Shown here piece by piece: positions 12,911 through 18,134 of a DNA stretch of 64,000 nucleotides. How positions within the stretch are numbered: the first letter of the stretch is position 1; every line of letters starts with the position of its first letter. This stretch comes from a virus (taxonomy: Duplodnaviria > Heunggongvirae > Uroviricota > Caudoviricetes). Location of the stretch: IMG/VR virus record IMGVR_UViG_2925891887_000001; one strand, 5' to 3'. The position numbers and the translations under genes are program-made. The notes beneath the pieces are model-generated. The model was not told the DNA's origin. It ran no database searches and saw only the letters and a program-made list of their open reading frames with translations.

Positions 12911-13492
12911 TAGATAAGTACAAACTATTCATAAAGTGAATTGTAAGTGCTAAGATCTGATAGTTTCCAGTCGTAGACTGGAGACTCGACCTGATGGGTG
13001 GGGGTAAGCGTCACTGGCGTCAGGTTTAAAAAAGCTCACTACCAGCGTAGAACTGGTGCCGTTTAGGTGTCGGGGAAGGGGGAACCAAAGTGAGCAGAGA
13101 CAAGGGTCACTTTATGATTGTCGAGTCTGGGGTGTTTCGAGAGGTTGAATCCAGTACTCCCCTTCATAAAGTGTGGGAAGATCTCGGTTCTGGGGTGCTG
13201 TCATCCATAACTTCCCAAGTCTAAGCTGGCAGTAGACTTAGACCATAACTTTTCAGGTTATGAAACGACCAGGTTGGTGAGAGATTTTTATACTCACCTC
13301 CCTGGGAGAGTATTACCTGAAAAGACAACCTCTCACTTCGTTCGAGGTGAACTTCACTCACTTCGTTCGTTCAGTTCAGGTTTATAAAAACCTGTTCTGG
13401 GAAGTAATTTGTTTATTTTAATAATTATTAACACGCACGCGTGTGCGCACGCGCGAAGAAAAATCGGCGCGGCGCTTGATTCAGGAGTTTAT

Positions 13493-14083
13493 ATGACGAC
13501 GAAGACACCAGCCCGATCGCAAGCAAAAACTCGCAAAAAAGCCAAAAACAAAAATTCCCCCCGCACCAATCCCACAACGCCTGTCGTAGAGTTCAATCCC
13601 CAGCTTAAAACCGTGAAAATCTTTAGTGATGGCTCTTGCCTTAAAAATCCGGGTGGCCCGGGCGGTTACGGTATCGTTCTCCAGTATCGTGGTGAGGAAC
13701 GCGAGTTCTCAGATGGTTTTCATAGCACCACCAATAACCGCATGGAGATGATGGGGGCACTTATCGGGCTGGAGCGTTTGAAATATCCATGCAACGTTAT
13801 TTTGCACTCTGATAGCCAGTATCTGAAAAACGGCATGACACAGTGGATGAAATGGTGGAAACGCAATGGATGGATGACTTCTGACAAAAAACCGGTAAAG
13901 AATGTTGATCTGTGGAAGCGTCTGGATGAGGCCGCAAGTCGACATAATGTTCGCTGGAAGTGGGTTAAAGGTCACGCCGGGCATCGTGAAAATGAAATAT
14001 GTGATCGACTCGCGAAGATCGCAGCTTTTTCAGCAGCAGATATGCCTCACAAGAAAGATATTGGTTTTGTTTATAATAAATAG
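13493..14083 (+). CDS. rnhA: ribonuclease HI with basic N-terminal extension
   Basis: [41 protein letters not shown], [12 protein letters not shown] colinear with E. coli RnhA; SD CAGGAG. Confidence 0.85.
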
Positions 14084-14231
14084 TAAGTAAGTGTTTACCT
14101 ATCATTTTAAATCATGTATCTTATCGGCGTCAGGATGACAATGTGTCGGTAAGACACAGTTCCAGGATGGAACGAGAAAGGCGGCTGGCAATCGCCAGCC
14201 GCAACTCTTTCTGACACTGGATGGAGTCCAC

Positions 14232-14726
14232 ATGGCACGTCAAACCTATTTCACTTCTGTAACTAAACGCCCTCGTTCTTTACGTCAAATTTTGGCCGAA
14301 TTATTTAGCGGTCGTGTTATGTCACGCCTTGAAGAACTAGAGACTACCGTTCGGTTGCTGAATGAACGTTTAGATAATCAAGCGTCAGTTGTTGCGAACG
14401 TGGGGGCGATTGTTGCCTCTGGCTCTTCACGCGAAGCGAAAAATGCACGGCCTTTAGTGAAGGAGAAAAACAACAAGGACAGTTCGAATGGAAAATTTTC
14501 AAAGAAAGAGGCTGAAACCAATGGCCTACGTTCTCATTATAGTTTCACTGGCGACGGTAGCCGTTCCAGCCGGTCAGAGCCTTTTGATGCCGGATTCATC
14601 CACCACCACACCTTCGTCGACGACAATTATCACCACTCCAGTGGAGCGTCCTGTCACTCTGGATGGGATGGCGGTGGATGCGATACCTCAAGTTCATCCA
14701 GTTACTCAGGATCATGCTGTGACTAA
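14232..14726 (+). CDS. hypothetical protein (N-terminal coiled coil; 3' half overlaps next ORF in another frame)
   Basis: ORF with GGAG upstream; C-terminal third is low-complexity and may be non-coding. Confidence 0.3.
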   Translation: MARQTYFTSVTKRPRSLRQILAELFSGRVMSRLEELETTVRLLNERLDNQASVVANVGAIVASGSSREAKNARPLVKEKNNKDSSNGKFSKKEAETNGLRSHYSFTGDGSRSSRSEPFDAGFIHHHTFVDDNYHHSSGASCHSGWDGGGCDTSSSSSYSGSCCD

Positions 14727-14739
14727 GGCGGTTGTATGA
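14521..14739 (+). CDS. small membrane-anchored Thr/Pro-rich protein (72 aa)
   Basis: SD AAGAGG 9 nt upstream; hydrophobic MAYVLIIVSLATVAVPA then TTTPSSTT; stop overlaps next start (ATGA). Confidence 0.4.
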   Translation: MAYVLIIVSLATVAVPAGQSLLMPDSSTTTPSSTTIITTPVERPVTLDGMAVDAIPQVHPVTQDHAVTKAVV

Positions 14740-14924
14740 ACTGGTTTTCAAATCACTTTGGAAAAATTTGGCTGGCAATTCTTGCCCTCATGGCCGCCGG
14801 TTGGGTATCGAACATTATAAAACTTGTTTGCTCTGGCGATCTCCAGTTTCAGGCTGGCATGACCTTGGCTCGTGTAGTTGGGATTTTTGTTTTTCCAGTT
14901 GGTTCGGTACTTGGTTATTTCTGA
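14736..14924 (+). CDS. small membrane protein (62 aa, two predicted TM helices)
   Basis: Translationally coupled ATGA overlap; hydrophobic segments. Confidence 0.4.
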   Translation: MNWFSNHFGKIWLAILALMAAGWVSNIIKLVCSGDLQFQAGMTLARVVGIFVFPVGSVLGYF

Positions 14925-14977
14925 CGGCTGTTAGTGCATATGCATTGACCATCTCTGCGTAAGCAATTTATGTAATT

Positions 14978-14994
14978 AGAAAACAACTTGTTTT
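14978..14994. promoter_or_regulatory. motif A palindrome AGAAAACAAcTTGTTTT (operator/promoter-like)
   Basis: Palindrome 24 nt upstream of ATG 15018, followed by conserved leader AAAGGAAAACACATG. Confidence 0.5.
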
Positions 14995-15017
14995 GACAAA
15001 TAATAAAAGGAAAACAC

Positions 15018-15443
15018 ATGTTAGGTTTCTTCAAAAAGAAAACTCGTAAAGCTGTTATCGAAGTCAAAAAAATGGAGAACCGTGATGCGGTTGAGGCCAC
15101 CGTGTGGGGCGCGTACATGATCTCCTATGCCGACGGCACATGTGACGCAAAAGAAATTGCCATTCTTGAGAAGACAATTGCAGCTCTGCCTGCGTTTTCT
15201 CCGTTTGCTGGTGAAATTGCCCAAATGAGCGCCAATATCCGTGCTCGTTACGAAGCGTCCCCTCGTTCTGCTAATGCACAGGCTATTCGTGAGCTGTCTG
15301 ATATTGCGGGTACTCCAGAGGCGGTCGATGTTCTGTGTCTGTGCCTTGATATTGCCGATCAGGACGGCATTGGTGAACAAGAAGAGCAGGCACTGAAAAA
15401 GATCGCCCAGGCGCTTCAGTTGTCACTGGATGCTTATCTCTAA
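15018..15443 (+). CDS. TerB-like domain protein
   Basis: Two helical ADG/ADQDG...E segments (YMISYADGTCDAKEIAILEK, LCLDIADQDGIGEQEEQAL) typical of TerB-family proteins. Confidence 0.45.
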   Translation: MLGFFKKKTRKAVIEVKKMENRDAVEATVWGAYMISYADGTCDAKEIAILEKTIAALPAFSPFAGEIAQMSANIRARYEASPRSANAQAIRELSDIAGTPEAVDVLCLCLDIADQDGIGEQEEQALKKIAQALQLSLDAYL

Positions 15444-15601
15444 TGCTTGAGAGATTCCGGCTTGTGATCGTCATTGCTCTTCTGGTGATGGCGGTGTTGG
15501 TGGATTTTACGGGAAAGATGATGTCTGTCATTTCTGATGGCGTCCTCATTGGTCTGGCGATCTACTTCGCTTATCCGCTAGTCCGTAAAGCAACGTGTTA
15601 A
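15443..15601 (+). CDS. small hydrophobic protein (about 52 aa)
   Basis: ATG overlapping TerB-like stop (TAATG); two hydrophobic stretches; below ORF-track size cutoff. Confidence 0.3.
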   Translation: MLERFRLVIVIALLVMAVLVDFTGKMMSVISDGVLIGLAIYFAYPLVRKATC

Positions 15602-15706
15602 TGACAAGGGCCAAATGGCCCTTGTGTTTCGTTGACCGAAATAGAGAGTTTGCACCTTTACGTTTAGCTTGCTCCCCTTTTATGCCACATCACAATAAAG
15701 CCAATA

Positions 15707-15722
15707 AGAAAACAACTTGTTT
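15707..15722. promoter_or_regulatory. motif A palindrome AGAAAACAAcTTGTTT
   Basis: 18 nt upstream of ATG 15741 with AGGAAAAACACATG leader. Confidence 0.5.
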
Positions 15723-15740
15723 AAGCATTAGGAAAAACAC

Positions 15741-16307
15741 ATGTGCAAGAAATGCAAAGCGATAGCTGATGAACAAAACGCCTTATTCGAAGAAATGGAT
15801 GCTAATGAACTGGTCAAAATGTTAGCCATTCTTCGAGGAATAGAAGACGTTTCCATATTTGAGAGAGTGGTTACAGCACTTAATTTTGAGTCCACCTTTG
15901 AAGAGCCAACTCAGGTTGTAGCTTTAGCACATCATTTCGGTGTTCATTATCTTGCTGAAAAAGAGAGAGCTGATAAGTTGCAAGCGACTTTGGATATGGT
16001 GAGCGAGACTCCAGGACCTCATGACGGTAACAAAAGTGAGACGATTATTGCCAGCAAAGATCGTGAAATTGCCGGGCTTAAATCCTCTCTAACGATGTTG
16101 ATGTCTGCAATTAACCTTATGTCTTCTAAAGCAGGTTATAAAATGCCATCACTAAACAGCGACGATCCGATGGCCGTTCGCCAGCTTTTAGGTGCAATGG
16201 CCGACCAGCTCGAAGACACAAAGAGTCGCCTTGAAGACATGATGCGGGAGCTCACGCATCGCCATGACTTGAATAAGCAGCCGCACAAAACGCAATACGC
16301 ACTCTAA
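15741..16307 (+). CDS. hypothetical protein (188 aa)
   Basis: Conserved leader and ATG. Confidence 0.45.
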   Translation: MCKKCKAIADEQNALFEEMDANELVKMLAILRGIEDVSIFERVVTALNFESTFEEPTQVVALAHHFGVHYLAEKERADKLQATLDMVSETPGPHDGNKSETIIASKDREIAGLKSSLTMLMSAINLMSSKAGYKMPSLNSDDPMAVRQLLGAMADQLEDTKSRLEDMMRELTHRHDLNKQPHKTQYAL

Positions 16308-16448
16308 TACAGCACCAGTCGACAGGGGGCGACAGCCCCCATTTTTACGCCTTAAATCTGCTGTAACGCCTATGAATGCAGCTTTTATGCCTTTTCAAGT
16401 TTGCGATAATTACACCAATCAGAAAACAAATTATTTAATGGTGTAATT

Positions 16449-18134
16449 ATGAATACAGCCCTTTCCATCATCGACGATGCCAGCTCAAACACGGCTATCG
16501 ACTATCGTCAGGAAATGAATGTCATCCACGAAATCGTGGCCGAGTGCGAGAAAGAGATCGCCTTCATGTATCAGGTACACGACTTCGTTTATGGCGACGA
16601 ACGCCACAACATGATTAATCGCCTGCTGAGACTAAACCATCGACCAGATGAAGATCGCTCGCGTTTAAATCGAGGTTGGTTGGATAAAGTCGATCTGGAA
16701 TGGGTGAAACAGAATATTTGGGCCGAGTACTGGAGGAAGGTCACGGACATGACTAACGTTTTGCTGATCATGCCAGCTTCCCGTCGAGATGAGTGGCGCG
16801 AGCAGTTTATAGAGGGCAAACAGGAAGTCATCAAAACTGACAGAACCGGCTACCAGATGAAGGTTAAAGAGTTCGTTGGTGTACCGGAGTTCAAAGCAGA
16901 AACGGTCATACCCACGATGCTTAATTTGCTGAATGACAGGCACAAATATCTCTCTGAGCGCGTGTATGGCTTGTTTAAGGCGCTGAGTCCTGCGCACAAG
17001 ACAAATAAGACAAACGGTTTCAGCGAGCGGCTGATAATCGCTGACTGCATTTCTGATTTCTGGCGGGACAGCGTTAGCGTGAACTATCGCAAAGAGGACT
17101 ACATCGACGATCTGCGTGTCTTGCTTCATTTCTTCGCGCACAAAGAATTTATTACCATCAATCGCACTGCTGAGGTGCTATCAGCTGCGTATCGGGCAAA
17201 CGACTGCCAGACCGGTGACTGGATGAACGTCGATGGAAATCTGATGCGCGTGAAGATGTTCAAGAACGGCAACGTTCACTTTGAAATACATCCTGACGTG
17301 GCCTGGAAGTTGAATGAGGTGCTGGCTTACAGTATGCCTGCTGCAATCCCCGCGCCATGTCGCACCGCGCCAAAAACACGGGCACCAAAGCAGTTCGGGT
17401 TAATCCAGAAGACGATCTCCGTGCCGGTTCGCACTGCGCTTCGTGACGGGCGATTGAGCAAAGACAAAGGCGTATGGTACTTCTCTGATTCAGCTCTCCA
17501 GAAGTCGCAGGTGGAAGAGCTTGAGCGCACACTGAGCTTCATTGGCGGCGTGCAGGAGAAAAAACACTGGCAGTTCCCGTATGAGATCGGCCATACGCTA
17601 AATACGATTGTGGCTACCGGATTAATACCGGATACAAAATCACACCAGTTCTACCCTACCCCACGCTTGATTGCTGAGTACGTTGCCAGAGCCACTGAAT
17701 TGAAGTCTGGTGAGAAGCTGCTGGAGCCTCAAGCCGGACGTGGGGATCTTCTGGCCTATATCAACGCCGATCTGGAAGATGTTACCTGCATAGAAATCGC
17801 ACCTCTCTTCGCTGATATCCTGCGCGGAAAAGGGTATACGAACACGATTTGCTGCGACTTCATAAAGTGGTCTGAGGACAACGTAGGTTATCAGTTCGAC
17901 AAAATCGTTATGAACCCGCCGTACTCGCTTGGTCGTCATAGAGAGCACACGCTGGCTGCGCTGGGGCATCTGAAAGTCGGCGGGCGTCTTGTAGCAGTAT
18001 TGCCGGGCACTGCGCCAATACTGGACTGGATGACGATGGATAATTACGTTTATGCCAGAGGGAAGTCGTTTACCAACGAGTTTGAAGACACAGGGATCAC
18101 AGTCAGCGTATACGTTTTCAAACGCGTTAAATGA
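16449..18134 (+). CDS. DNA N6-adenine methyltransferase with large N-terminal domain of unknown function
   Basis: C-terminal about 170 aa carry gamma-class motifs: QFYPTP (X), EPQAGRGDL (I, SAM-binding), NPPYS (IV); N-terminal about 390 aa unassigned. Confidence 0.7.
   Translation: MNTALSIIDDASSNTAIDYRQEMNVIHEIVAECEKEIAFMYQVHDFVYGDERHNMINRLLRLNHRPDEDRSRLNRGWLDKVDLEWVKQNIWAEYWRKVTDMTNVLLIMPASRRDEWREQFIEGKQEVIKTDRTGYQMKVKEFVGVPEFKAETVIPTMLNLLNDRHKYLSERVYGLFKALSPAHKTNKTNGFSERLIIADCISDFWRDSVSVNYRKEDYIDDLRVLLHFFAHKEFITINRTAEVLSAAYRANDCQTGDWMNVDGNLMRVKMFKNGNVHFEIHPDVAWKLNEVLAYSMPAAIPAPCRTAPKTRAPKQFGLIQKTISVPVRTALRDGRLSKDKGVWYFSDSALQKSQVEELERTLSFIGGVQEKKHWQFPYEIGHTLNTIVATGLIPDTKSHQFYPTPRLIAEYVARATELKSGEKLLEPQAGRGDLLAYINADLEDVTCIEIAPLFADILRGKGYTNTICCDFIKWSEDNVGYQFDKIVMNPPYSLGRHREHTLAALGHLKVGGRLVAVLPGTAPILDWMTMDNYVYARGKSFTNEFEDTGITVSVYVFKRVK

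Follow-up and report, generated by a model that had tools for sequence, protein, structure and literature searches.

The region examined here, positions 14232 to 15601 of the 64,000-nucleotide (nt) virus record IMGVR_UViG_2925891887_000001 (the whole stretch is called the window below), carries a 164-codon open reading frame (ORF), named ORF164, a second ORF that overlaps it in the +1 frame, a short membrane-protein gene, ORF62, and counterparts of the phage P1 genes tciA and tciB. Nucleotide comparisons identify the window as a phage-plasmid of the SSU5/pHCM2 family. A first-pass annotation made from the letters of the sequence had grouped the five ORFs into one cluster of small membrane proteins with a TerB-like protein, and had offered three explanations of the overlapping pair: the first ORF ends earlier than called, there is a frameshift, or the second ORF is embedded. 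All five ORFs were found, and the +1 ORF also extends 5' to position 14488. Comparison with relatives indicates that 14488-14739 is a real 83-codon gene embedded in ORF164. The explanation of the whole region that we consider probable is that it comprises two separate accessory modules (14232-14924 and 15018-15601) in the early, DNA-metabolism arm of the replicon. The features are listed below in window coordinates.

14142-14216, + strand: leader of ORF164, with hairpin 1 (GTTCC-aggat-GGAAC, ~14159-14173), a GC-rich 9-bp hairpin 2 (14181-14202) and the invariant AACTCTTTCTGACA
14232-14726, + strand: ORF164, frame 0, 164 codons (phrog_10411)
14475-14478, + strand: core AGGA of the Shine-Dalgarno sequence of the embedded gene, 9 nt 5' of ATG 14488
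14488-14739, + strand: embedded gene, +1 frame, 83 amino acids (aa) (phrog_15659)
14736-14924, + strand: ORF62, with two hydrophobic segments predicted by hydropathy (phrog_6006)
14971-14993, + strand: palindromic promoter-/operator-like element agAAAACAAcTTGTTT, 37 nt 5' of the tciA ATG
15018-15443, + strand: tciA ortholog encoding a TerB-domain protein of 141 aa (Pfam TerB, phrog_632)
15443-15601, + strand: tciB ortholog encoding a DUF3927 protein of 52 aa with two hydrophobic segments (Pfam DUF3927, phrog_1470)
15604-15635, + strand: hairpin ACAAGGGCC-aaat-GGCCCTTGT resembling an intrinsic terminator, followed by a T-rich tail, at the end of the tciAB unit

The overlap between ORF164 and the +1 ORF, previously put at about 200 nt, measures 239 nt from the conserved start at 14488 and 206 nt from the start called earlier at 14521. 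The embedded gene ends 13 nt past the end of ORF164, and its TGA stop shares the tetranucleotide ATGA (14736-14739) with the ATG of ORF62; the ORF164 stop lies 10 nt 5' of ORF62. Hydropathy analysis agreed with the earlier assignment of one hydrophobic segment to the +1 ORF (maximum KD15 2.53) and two to ORF62, and also gave two for the 52-aa ORF. ORF164 contained no hydrophobic segment (maximum KD15 1.45, with no hydropathy window above 1.5).

A gene embedded in the +1 frame of ORF164

The locus was compared across 10 annotated relatives, 72 IMG/VR and 3 GTDB loci and one Logan contig (L091), which reduced to 61 unique locus versions with 40-99% protein identity, and substitution classes were counted by parsimony ancestors on a neighbour-joining tree. 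One of these loci, L004 (E. coli plasmid pYLPD4a, 1533-2027), carries a recombinant ORF164 whose 5' half is of the SSU5/pHCM2 type and whose 3' half, including the overlap, is of the E. coli (window) type; such recombination inside the gene makes a single tree for the whole locus only approximate. Both frames were open in 59 of the 61 unique versions, down to ~40% amino acid identity, and also in the most divergent locus, L091; the two exceptions among the 61 were 1-nt indels. We dismissed openness of the +1 frame as evidence in itself because simulations in which the frame-0 tail was recoded synonymously left the +1 frame open by chance in 41-71% of cases (9% in L010).

The substitution pattern was frame-specific. 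Upstream of the overlap the variability of codon positions followed the order 3 > 1 > 2 in frame 0, and inside the overlap frame-0 position 3 was the least variable. Frame-0-synonymous changes occurred at 0.85 per opportunity upstream. Within the overlap the rates were 0.558 for changes nonsynonymous in frame 0 and synonymous in +1, 0.396 for changes synonymous in frame 0 and nonsynonymous in +1, and 0.398 for those nonsynonymous in both, with overlap-wide values of ~0.7 for omega(+1) and ~1.0 for omega(f0). Over embedded codons 1-36, +1-synonymous changes were counted at 72 of 109 opportunities, compared to 16 of 107 for frame-0-synonymous changes (p = 1.4e-9). The Thr/Pro-rich linker that follows was near-neutral in both frames and contained many indels, and the last ~25 embedded codons leaned weakly toward frame 0 (p = 0.017 or 0.11, depending on the tree).

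The change of selection from frame 0 to +1 coincides exactly with position 14488. In the 33 nt before this ATG (14455-14487) the pattern was frame-0-like, with frame-0-synonymous changes at a rate of 0.92 (vs 0.53), and over 14488-14520 it was +1-like, that rate having dropped to 0.06 (vs 0.53; p = 8e-4). ATG 14488 was present in every lineage, and a GGA/GGAG core lay 8-9 nt 5' of it in the ten lineages compared; in L091 the core is GGAAGG, 6 nt before the ATG. This Shine-Dalgarno core was kept despite changing flanks (AAGGA, TGGAG, AGGGA, GGAAGG). By contrast, the start at 14521, which the first-pass annotation had credited with a good Shine-Dalgarno sequence, did not hold up, as the AAGAGG preceding it is not conserved and the ATG itself is ATT in one lineage.

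Changes creating a stop codon in the +1 frame numbered 22-25 per 54 opportunities upstream, and inside the overlap, with the linker excluded, there were none per 17.1 opportunities (P = 0.006). The codon-usage coding potential of the +1 frame was positive across the overlap (+0.24, +0.10, +0.40), the ATGA junction was retained between lineages in which ORF62 is just 53% identical, and the family of the embedded protein comprises 24 clusters, mostly of 83 aa. These patterns identify 14488-14739 as a gene with its own conserved start, and of the three explanations offered for the pair that of an embedded second ORF was the right one.

The embedded gene has nevertheless been passed over. None of the ten records inspected carried an annotation of the +1 ORF by its depositors or by PGAP, which annotate ORF164, although PHROG has a family for each of the two ORFs (phrog_10411 and phrog_15659). 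A conserved small protein, predicted to be exported, is therefore missing from nearly all annotations of the family, since PGAP and most depositors omit it. The ORF62 homolog is likewise unannotated in Klebsiella phage pJN2-26 (L010, ~2112-2264) and in three other Klebsiella phage records.

ORF164, its frame-0 tail and the products of the first module

ORF164 has a basic N-terminus and one long helix at aa 17-70 (AlphaFold, pLDDT up to 93). Residues 71-164 were modelled as disordered with pLDDT ~40 and are rich in Ser, Gly, His and Asp, in keeping with the low complexity noted earlier for the 3' part of the gene, and the low confidence over these residues places the embedded gene wholly within a disordered tail. 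The tail ends in C-x-S-G-W-D/N-x-x-G-x-D...CCD. Upstream of 14488 substitutions followed the frame-0 pattern with a dN/dS of ~0.49. The family consists of 61 clusters and is an orphan: a word-indexed search and a full hmmsearch against 1.84e9 representatives returned, as remote homologs of ORF164, its own family and two low-complexity hits.

Several observations bear on whether the tail is maintained as protein. Frame 0 contained no stop in any of the 59 unique relatives free of indels, and changes creating a frame-0 stop were under-represented (at most 3 per 30.3 opportunities, P = 0.007), which contradicts the suggestion that the first ORF ends earlier than called. When the +1 protein was recoded synonymously in simulation, frame 0 remained open in only 5-13% of cases per lineage. 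The position of the frame-0 stop was unchanged even in loci without ORF62. Near the 3' end, the same nucleotides in 11 lineages encode C-x-S-G-W-D/N-x-x-G-x-D in frame 0 and V-x-L-D-G-M-x-[VLM]-D-x-I-P in +1. Three +1-synonymous sites in this core were invariant exactly at the frame-0 residues G, W and G; the frame-0 Cys was retained through a TGT/TGC change that converts a +1 Val to Ala, and the +1 Gly was retained through a GGG/GGA change that converts a frame-0 Asp to Asn. RNA structure was ruled out as the reason for this double conservation (RNAalifold energy of -5.3 kcal/mol, covariation term -0.03), and a search for known RNA families in 13000-17000 gave only sub-threshold noise.

We conclude that frame 0 is probably kept open and its C-terminal motif constrained, that most of the ORF164 tail is free to vary, and that the functionality of frame 0 is the weaker part of the claim. 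The pattern would correspond to dual coding with partitioned constraint, in which the first 108 nt of the overlap would be constrained by the +1 protein only, the linker would be free in both frames, and a 3' core of ~30 nt would carry the conserved motifs of both.

The leader of ORF164 (14142-14216) was more conserved than the coding sequence. Hairpin 2 folded in all ten lineages, and its inner stem shows compensatory changes in L010, L067 and L091. Scans called the leader terminator-like on either strand, and no space for a promoter remains between it and the ORF164 ATG; hairpin 2 may serve as an attenuator, a terminator, a 5' stabiliser or a protein-binding site.

The embedded protein begins with a basic n-region (MENFQRKRLKP) followed by a hydrophobic helix at aa 12-26 (14-15 residues), in which replacements were conservative (V/I/L/A, S/T), and then by a conserved PAGQSLLxPD. 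This last stretch, conserved as [AS]-x-[AT]|[VIT]-P-x-x-Q-S-L-L-x-P-[DE], fits a signal-peptidase site, the predicted position being after Ala25 (A-V-A|V-P). The Thr/Pro-rich, indel-prone linker and a conserved LDGMx[VLM]DxIP make up the 3' part. AlphaFold modelled a helix at residues 3-23 and the remainder as extended, low-confidence coil. The protein is predicted to have either a cleaved Sec signal peptide or an uncleaved signal anchor with a periplasmic tail, the two being equally possible. ORF62 has its two hydrophobic segments and no charged tail; its family comprises 11 clusters, and its weak stand-alone homologs are small transmembrane (TM) genes in Aeromonas and Vibrio phages. Neither Pfam nor NCBIfam contained a match for ORF164, the embedded ORF or ORF62, and no relatives of ORF164 (profile search exhaustive) or of the embedded protein were found outside this phage-plasmid group.

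Taken together, the first module would yield three polypeptides, most likely from one mRNA. Ribosomes initiating at 14232 would produce ORF164, a cytoplasmic protein with a long, probably coiled-coil helix and a disordered tail, and those initiating internally at 14488, using its own Shine-Dalgarno sequence, would produce the 83-aa protein. The basic and hydrophobic N-terminus would route the latter to Sec, placing the Thr/Pro tail and the LDGM..D.IP motif in the periplasm, and termination at the ATGA would couple translation of ORF62. A more ambitious version, in which ORF164, the embedded peptide and ORF62 form a three-part system across cytoplasm, inner membrane and periplasm, seems to us rather doubtful. 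If true, such a system could, for instance, keep a second phage genome from entering, set the time of lysis or act against a host defence based in the envelope; through overprinting, the partners in the cytoplasm and the periplasm would be inherited and expressed together, and the disordered tail of ORF164, rich in His and Cys, would be a module that binds metal or a partner.

Among readings that retain the embedded gene, one holds that it alone matters and that the ORF164 tail is a non-functional read-through extension, left open so that ribosomes reach the ORF62 junction or as a safeguard against polarity. The neutrality of frame 0 (omega(f0) ~1.0 to 1.9 in the first 108 nt and ~0.85 in the linker), the modelled disorder, a frame-0 coding potential of -0.27 in the 3' core and the persistence of variants with a replaced frame-0 C-terminus are all consistent with this. 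It accounts poorly for the avoidance of frame-0 stops and the low openness under +1-synonymous recoding, for a C-x-S-G-W-D/N-x-x-G motif present in 11 of 11 lineages, with three +1-synonymous sites fixed and the Cys kept where the +1 residue altered, and for a frame-0 stop that stays put where ORF62 is missing. We consider it unlikely. The converse reading, that ORF164 is the only gene and the +1 ORF an untranslated by-product of tail composition, can point to the chance openness of the +1 frame and to RefSeq/PGAP and most depositors annotating ORF164 alone. It is highly improbable in view of a frame-specific substitution pattern that begins exactly at a conserved ATG, the conserved Shine-Dalgarno sequence, the avoidance of +1 stops in the overlap only, the conservative helix replacements, the positive coding potential and the conserved ATGA junction.

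For the ORF164/embedded pair the ALTERNATIVES weighed were frameshifting and spanins. Programmed frameshifts give C-terminal variants in dnaX and in the tail-chaperone G/GT genes, and database proteins of exactly 168 aa do join the frame-0 N-terminus of ORF164 to the +1 C-terminus in several lineages, as a programmed +1 ribosomal frameshift yielding two C-terminal variants would predict. These fusions, however, reflect 1-nt deletions at the DNA level, in T4 or A5 runs at six or more positions and in ~1% of members; no one position has a conserved slippery site or stimulatory structure, and +1 selection begins at the embedded ATG with its own Shine-Dalgarno sequence rather than at a shift site. 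Programmed frameshifting was rejected on these grounds and has almost no probability left, and the frameshift among the earlier suggestions is not supported. The fusions are put down to mutation or sequencing error and can be seen at all only through the openness of both frames; with the P0043 variant present on 80 contigs, some of them at least are alleles in circulation rather than sequencing errors. Carriers include loci L057 and L083 and proteins P0021, P0022, P0043, P0048-P0051, P0057, P0059, P0067 and P0070; an example of a deletion site is the T4 run in CCTTTTG at window positions 14584-14590. The spanin reading starts from a real likeness in architecture: as in Rz/Rz1 or P2 lysB/lysC, a +1 gene whose product is Pro-rich and carries a predicted export signal begins within the upstream gene and runs slightly past its end, and the outer gene has a predicted coiled coil. 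We rejected it, and regard it as scarcely credible, since ORF164 has no TM segment, the embedded protein has no conserved Cys and hence no lipobox, the locus lies among DNA-metabolism genes, and the PHROG matches are of unknown function. The 97%-identical relative Cyrano moreover has a complete holin-endolysin-Rz-Rz1 cassette (CYRAN_22-25) ~52 kb away.

The tciAB pair and the modular build of the region

The second module, 15018-15601, is identified by homology as the tciA-tciB pair of phage P1, and so consists of genes already known. The 141-aa protein matched the TerB profile (Pfam PF05099, residues 33-136) at 31.5 bits compared to a cut-off of 24.4 (E = 2.4e-7), belongs to phrog_632 'tellurite resistance' (E = 4.8e-63) and is 78.7% identical to P1 TciA over all 141 residues (E = 1e-69), so that the original TerB-like label was right and understated. 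The 52-aa product, first described simply as a hydrophobic peptide, is hydrophobic as stated, and the description needs correcting in that it belongs to a known family: it matched Pfam DUF3927 at 48.3 bits (cut-off 25) and P1 TciB with 39% identity and 75% positives (E = 8e-11). The tciA stop and tciB start overlap by 1 nt, as TAATG in the window and TGATG in P1. No tciC was found in the window, where the best tblastn match to P1 TciC had an E value of 0.56 and the terminator lies directly 3' of tciB. TciA homologs occurred in 98 phage records of many lineages, and tciAB is also found alone in P1, P7, D6, lambdoid, Erwinia and Pseudomonas phages. A sequence search of the PDB with TciA gave no meaningful match. 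On Logan contig L091 a tciB homolog (1858-2004) stands uncalled beside the TerB gene.

[quoted passage not shown] The P1 tci genes are non-essential by CRISPR interference (PMC10695390), belong to a variable region of P1-like plasmids (PMC9603915) and are induced or transcribed in lytic growth (bioRxiv 10.64898/2025.12.28.696737). In E. coli DjlA a TM helix anchors the TerB-like domain to the inner membrane on its cytoplasmic side (PMC11709261), and the TerB of ter operons has the integral membrane protein TerC as an interaction partner (PMC11003894). By analogy, since TerB domains act at the membrane through a TM helix or through TerC, cytoplasmic TciA, translationally coupled to the tiny two-TM TciB, would most likely be tethered to the inner membrane by it. 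The pair would be transcribed from its own motif-led start and ended by the terminator.

That motif is a family-wide element. The palindromic sequence agAAAACAAnTTGTTT gave 33 strand matches in the window compared to 3.0 expected, and at least 11 early genes, among them tciA and the gene after it, have a copy 24-45 nt 5' of their start codons. Copies are at the following positions.

4762, 14981, 15710, 16424, 19331, 22954, 23005, 25045, 26227, 26604, 27088, 27991, 28755, 39172, 39197

With its extended left arm the element reads approximately CACCAAnnAGA-AAACAA-N-TTGTTT. It is also present in SSU5 (L007, 2252 and 3224). In SSU5 and pHCM2 a Rha/antirepressor cassette occupies the tciAB slot, and in SSU5 the palindromic motif precedes this alternative cassette. 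The element resembles a promoter or operator specific to the family, and would in addition mark where exchangeable cassettes begin and end. In front of ORF164 stands not the motif but the conserved leader with its two hairpins.

Among the 86 loci, ORF164 and the embedded ORF always occurred together, and all parts were adjacent in 59. ORF62 was absent from 11, and TciA and TciB were absent from 27, always as a pair; in L091 tciAB is present and ORF62 absent. ORF164 with the embedded ORF, ORF62 and tciAB therefore assort independently and are at least two modules, not one unit, contrary to the single five-ORF cluster first described, the parts of which also have separate transcription signals.

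The genomic setting of the two modules is that of a widespread plasmid family. Many non-mobilizable plasmids of E. coli and Shigella, each of ~110 kb, match the 3 kb surrounding the cluster at 99% identity, and Escherichia phages CMS-2020a, Cyrano and PhiR41_1 match it at 96-98%. Farther nucleotide matches, at 66-68%, include Salmonella phage SSU5, S. Typhi plasmid pHCM2 and Klebsiella, Enterobacter and Cronobacter plasmids, and the locus was found on more than 680 plasmid records. In the curated annotation of Cyrano it lies inside a long same-strand series of DNA-metabolism genes, with exonuclease, adenine methylase and RNase H genes followed by CYRAN_83-86 and then by a DUF4942 protein and Ea-type genes.

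Expression values were taken from LF82/Cyrano transcriptomes (PMC9928086 S1 Table), which report on the 97%-identical relative. CYRAN_83-86 stood at log2 2.3-3.3 in overnight LB lysogens (floor 2.32) and at ~4.5-6.0 one hour after dilution, and they are not on the list of lysogeny-expressed morons (PMC9928086). The silence of these homologs in lysogens, together with the C1 repression of P1 tciAB, argues against an exclusion role expressed from the prophage. None of the five proteins matched a PADLOC defence model at E <= 0.1, and a text search for these genes in a study of DNA-entry defence by an SSU5-like plasmid of Klebsiella found no mention of them.

These data bear directly on the earlier reading that all five or six ORFs form one prophage-expressed system for superinfection exclusion or manipulation of envelope stress. 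In its favour, four products are predicted to be membrane-bound or exported, TerB domains have been linked to membrane stress, and all parts are adjacent in most loci. A single system would not be expected to assort as these parts do, with an antirepressor cassette in the tciAB slot of SSU5 and pHCM2, 11 loci without ORF62, the composition of L091 and tciAB standing alone in other phages, or to carry separate promoter-like and terminator signals. With Cyrano homologs at the detection floor in lysogens, P1 tciAB repressed by C1 and no PADLOC matches, we consider one such system very unlikely. Most likely, both modules encode non-essential accessory proteins of lytic or derepressed growth, with their site of action at the inner membrane or in the periplasm of the host, rather than exclusion factors expressed from the prophage.

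Several points weigh against the explanation proposed here for the whole region. Translation of both frames is deduced from sequence patterns, and the cleavage and topology of the embedded protein are predicted from hydropathy and the -3/-1 pattern. Function in both frames is argued from stop avoidance and the weakly significant 3'-core signal (p = 0.017 or 0.11), and the frame-0 tail is neutral at the amino acid level over most of its length (omega(f0) ~1). Parsimony counts are approximate, the sequences being phylogenetically related and including recombinants such as L004. P0043-type 1-nt deletions that wreck both C-termini persist (80 contigs), which means that the 3' parts may be dispensable. 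The searches run returned no homolog of known function for ORF164, the embedded protein or ORF62. Lastly, expression was read from the 97%-identical Cyrano, and measurements close to the floor are noisy.

Two neighbouring features were seen in passing. An ORF of 188 aa at 15741-16307, 3' of the tciAB terminator, belongs to phrog_5508, a family of unknown function, carries a palindromic-motif copy of its own and is kept in most relatives with or without tciAB. On the other side, 13090-13224, a 44-codon GTG ORF equivalent to Cyrano CYRAN_81 in a 500-nt ORF-poor gap 5' of RNase H, is the sole strongly lysogen-expressed feature nearby, as measured for its homolog in the LF82 transcriptomes (~117 normalised reads, 12x background). 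No tRNA was found there and the fold was not better than that of shuffled sequences (z = -0.48); the feature could be a small RNA or a small protein.

Comparison with known systems

SSU5/pHCM2-type phage-plasmids are frequent in clinical E. coli, Klebsiella, Salmonella (S. Typhi included) and Cronobacter. The dual-coding ORF164/ORF83 locus with its coupled ORF62 is new, and we regard it as a well-supported, if modest, addition to known overlapping phage genes. It provides a testable case of dual coding whose constraint is partitioned along the overlap, and in which single-base changes exist that silence one frame and leave the other intact. The neighbouring 'TerB-like' gene is clarified as part of the P1 tciAB cassette, which moves among many phages, and the exchangeable slot that it occupies starts with the family's promoter-like motif.

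The second module resembles P1 tciA-tciB-tciC of the ban operon in gene order, in the 1-nt stop/start overlap and in its place among early/replication genes of a phage-plasmid. It differs in having no tciC and in being led by the SSU5-family palindromic motif and closed by its own terminator, not placed inside the C1-controlled ban operon. TciA with the coupled two-TM TciB would also fit the logic of a membrane-tethered TerB domain seen in DjlA and in TerB-TerC, but TciA has neither a J-domain nor a TerC partner and TciB is unrelated to TerC.

For the first module, the closest likeness in layout is with spanin genes. In lambda Rz/Rz1 and P2 lysB/lysC the outer-membrane subunit is read from the +1 frame of the gene for the inner-membrane subunit. 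As in these pairs, the +1 gene of the window, for a Pro-rich product predicted to be exported, begins inside the upstream gene, and the 'overlapped' P2 type also ends a few codons beyond it. The outer gene of the window has no TM segment, however, the inner gene has no lipobox and neither lies in a lysis cassette, so that architecture alone is shared. In overprinted genes of the phiX174 type, two frames are selected over the same nucleotides and the overlapped stretch is disordered or of low complexity. The overlap in the window likewise covers a low-complexity stretch of ORF164 that is modelled as disordered, and would probably be under selection in both frames. It differs in lying in a genome of ~110 kb with no obvious compaction pressure, and in that its constraint would be split between parts selected in +1 only, in neither frame and in both, rather than shared throughout.

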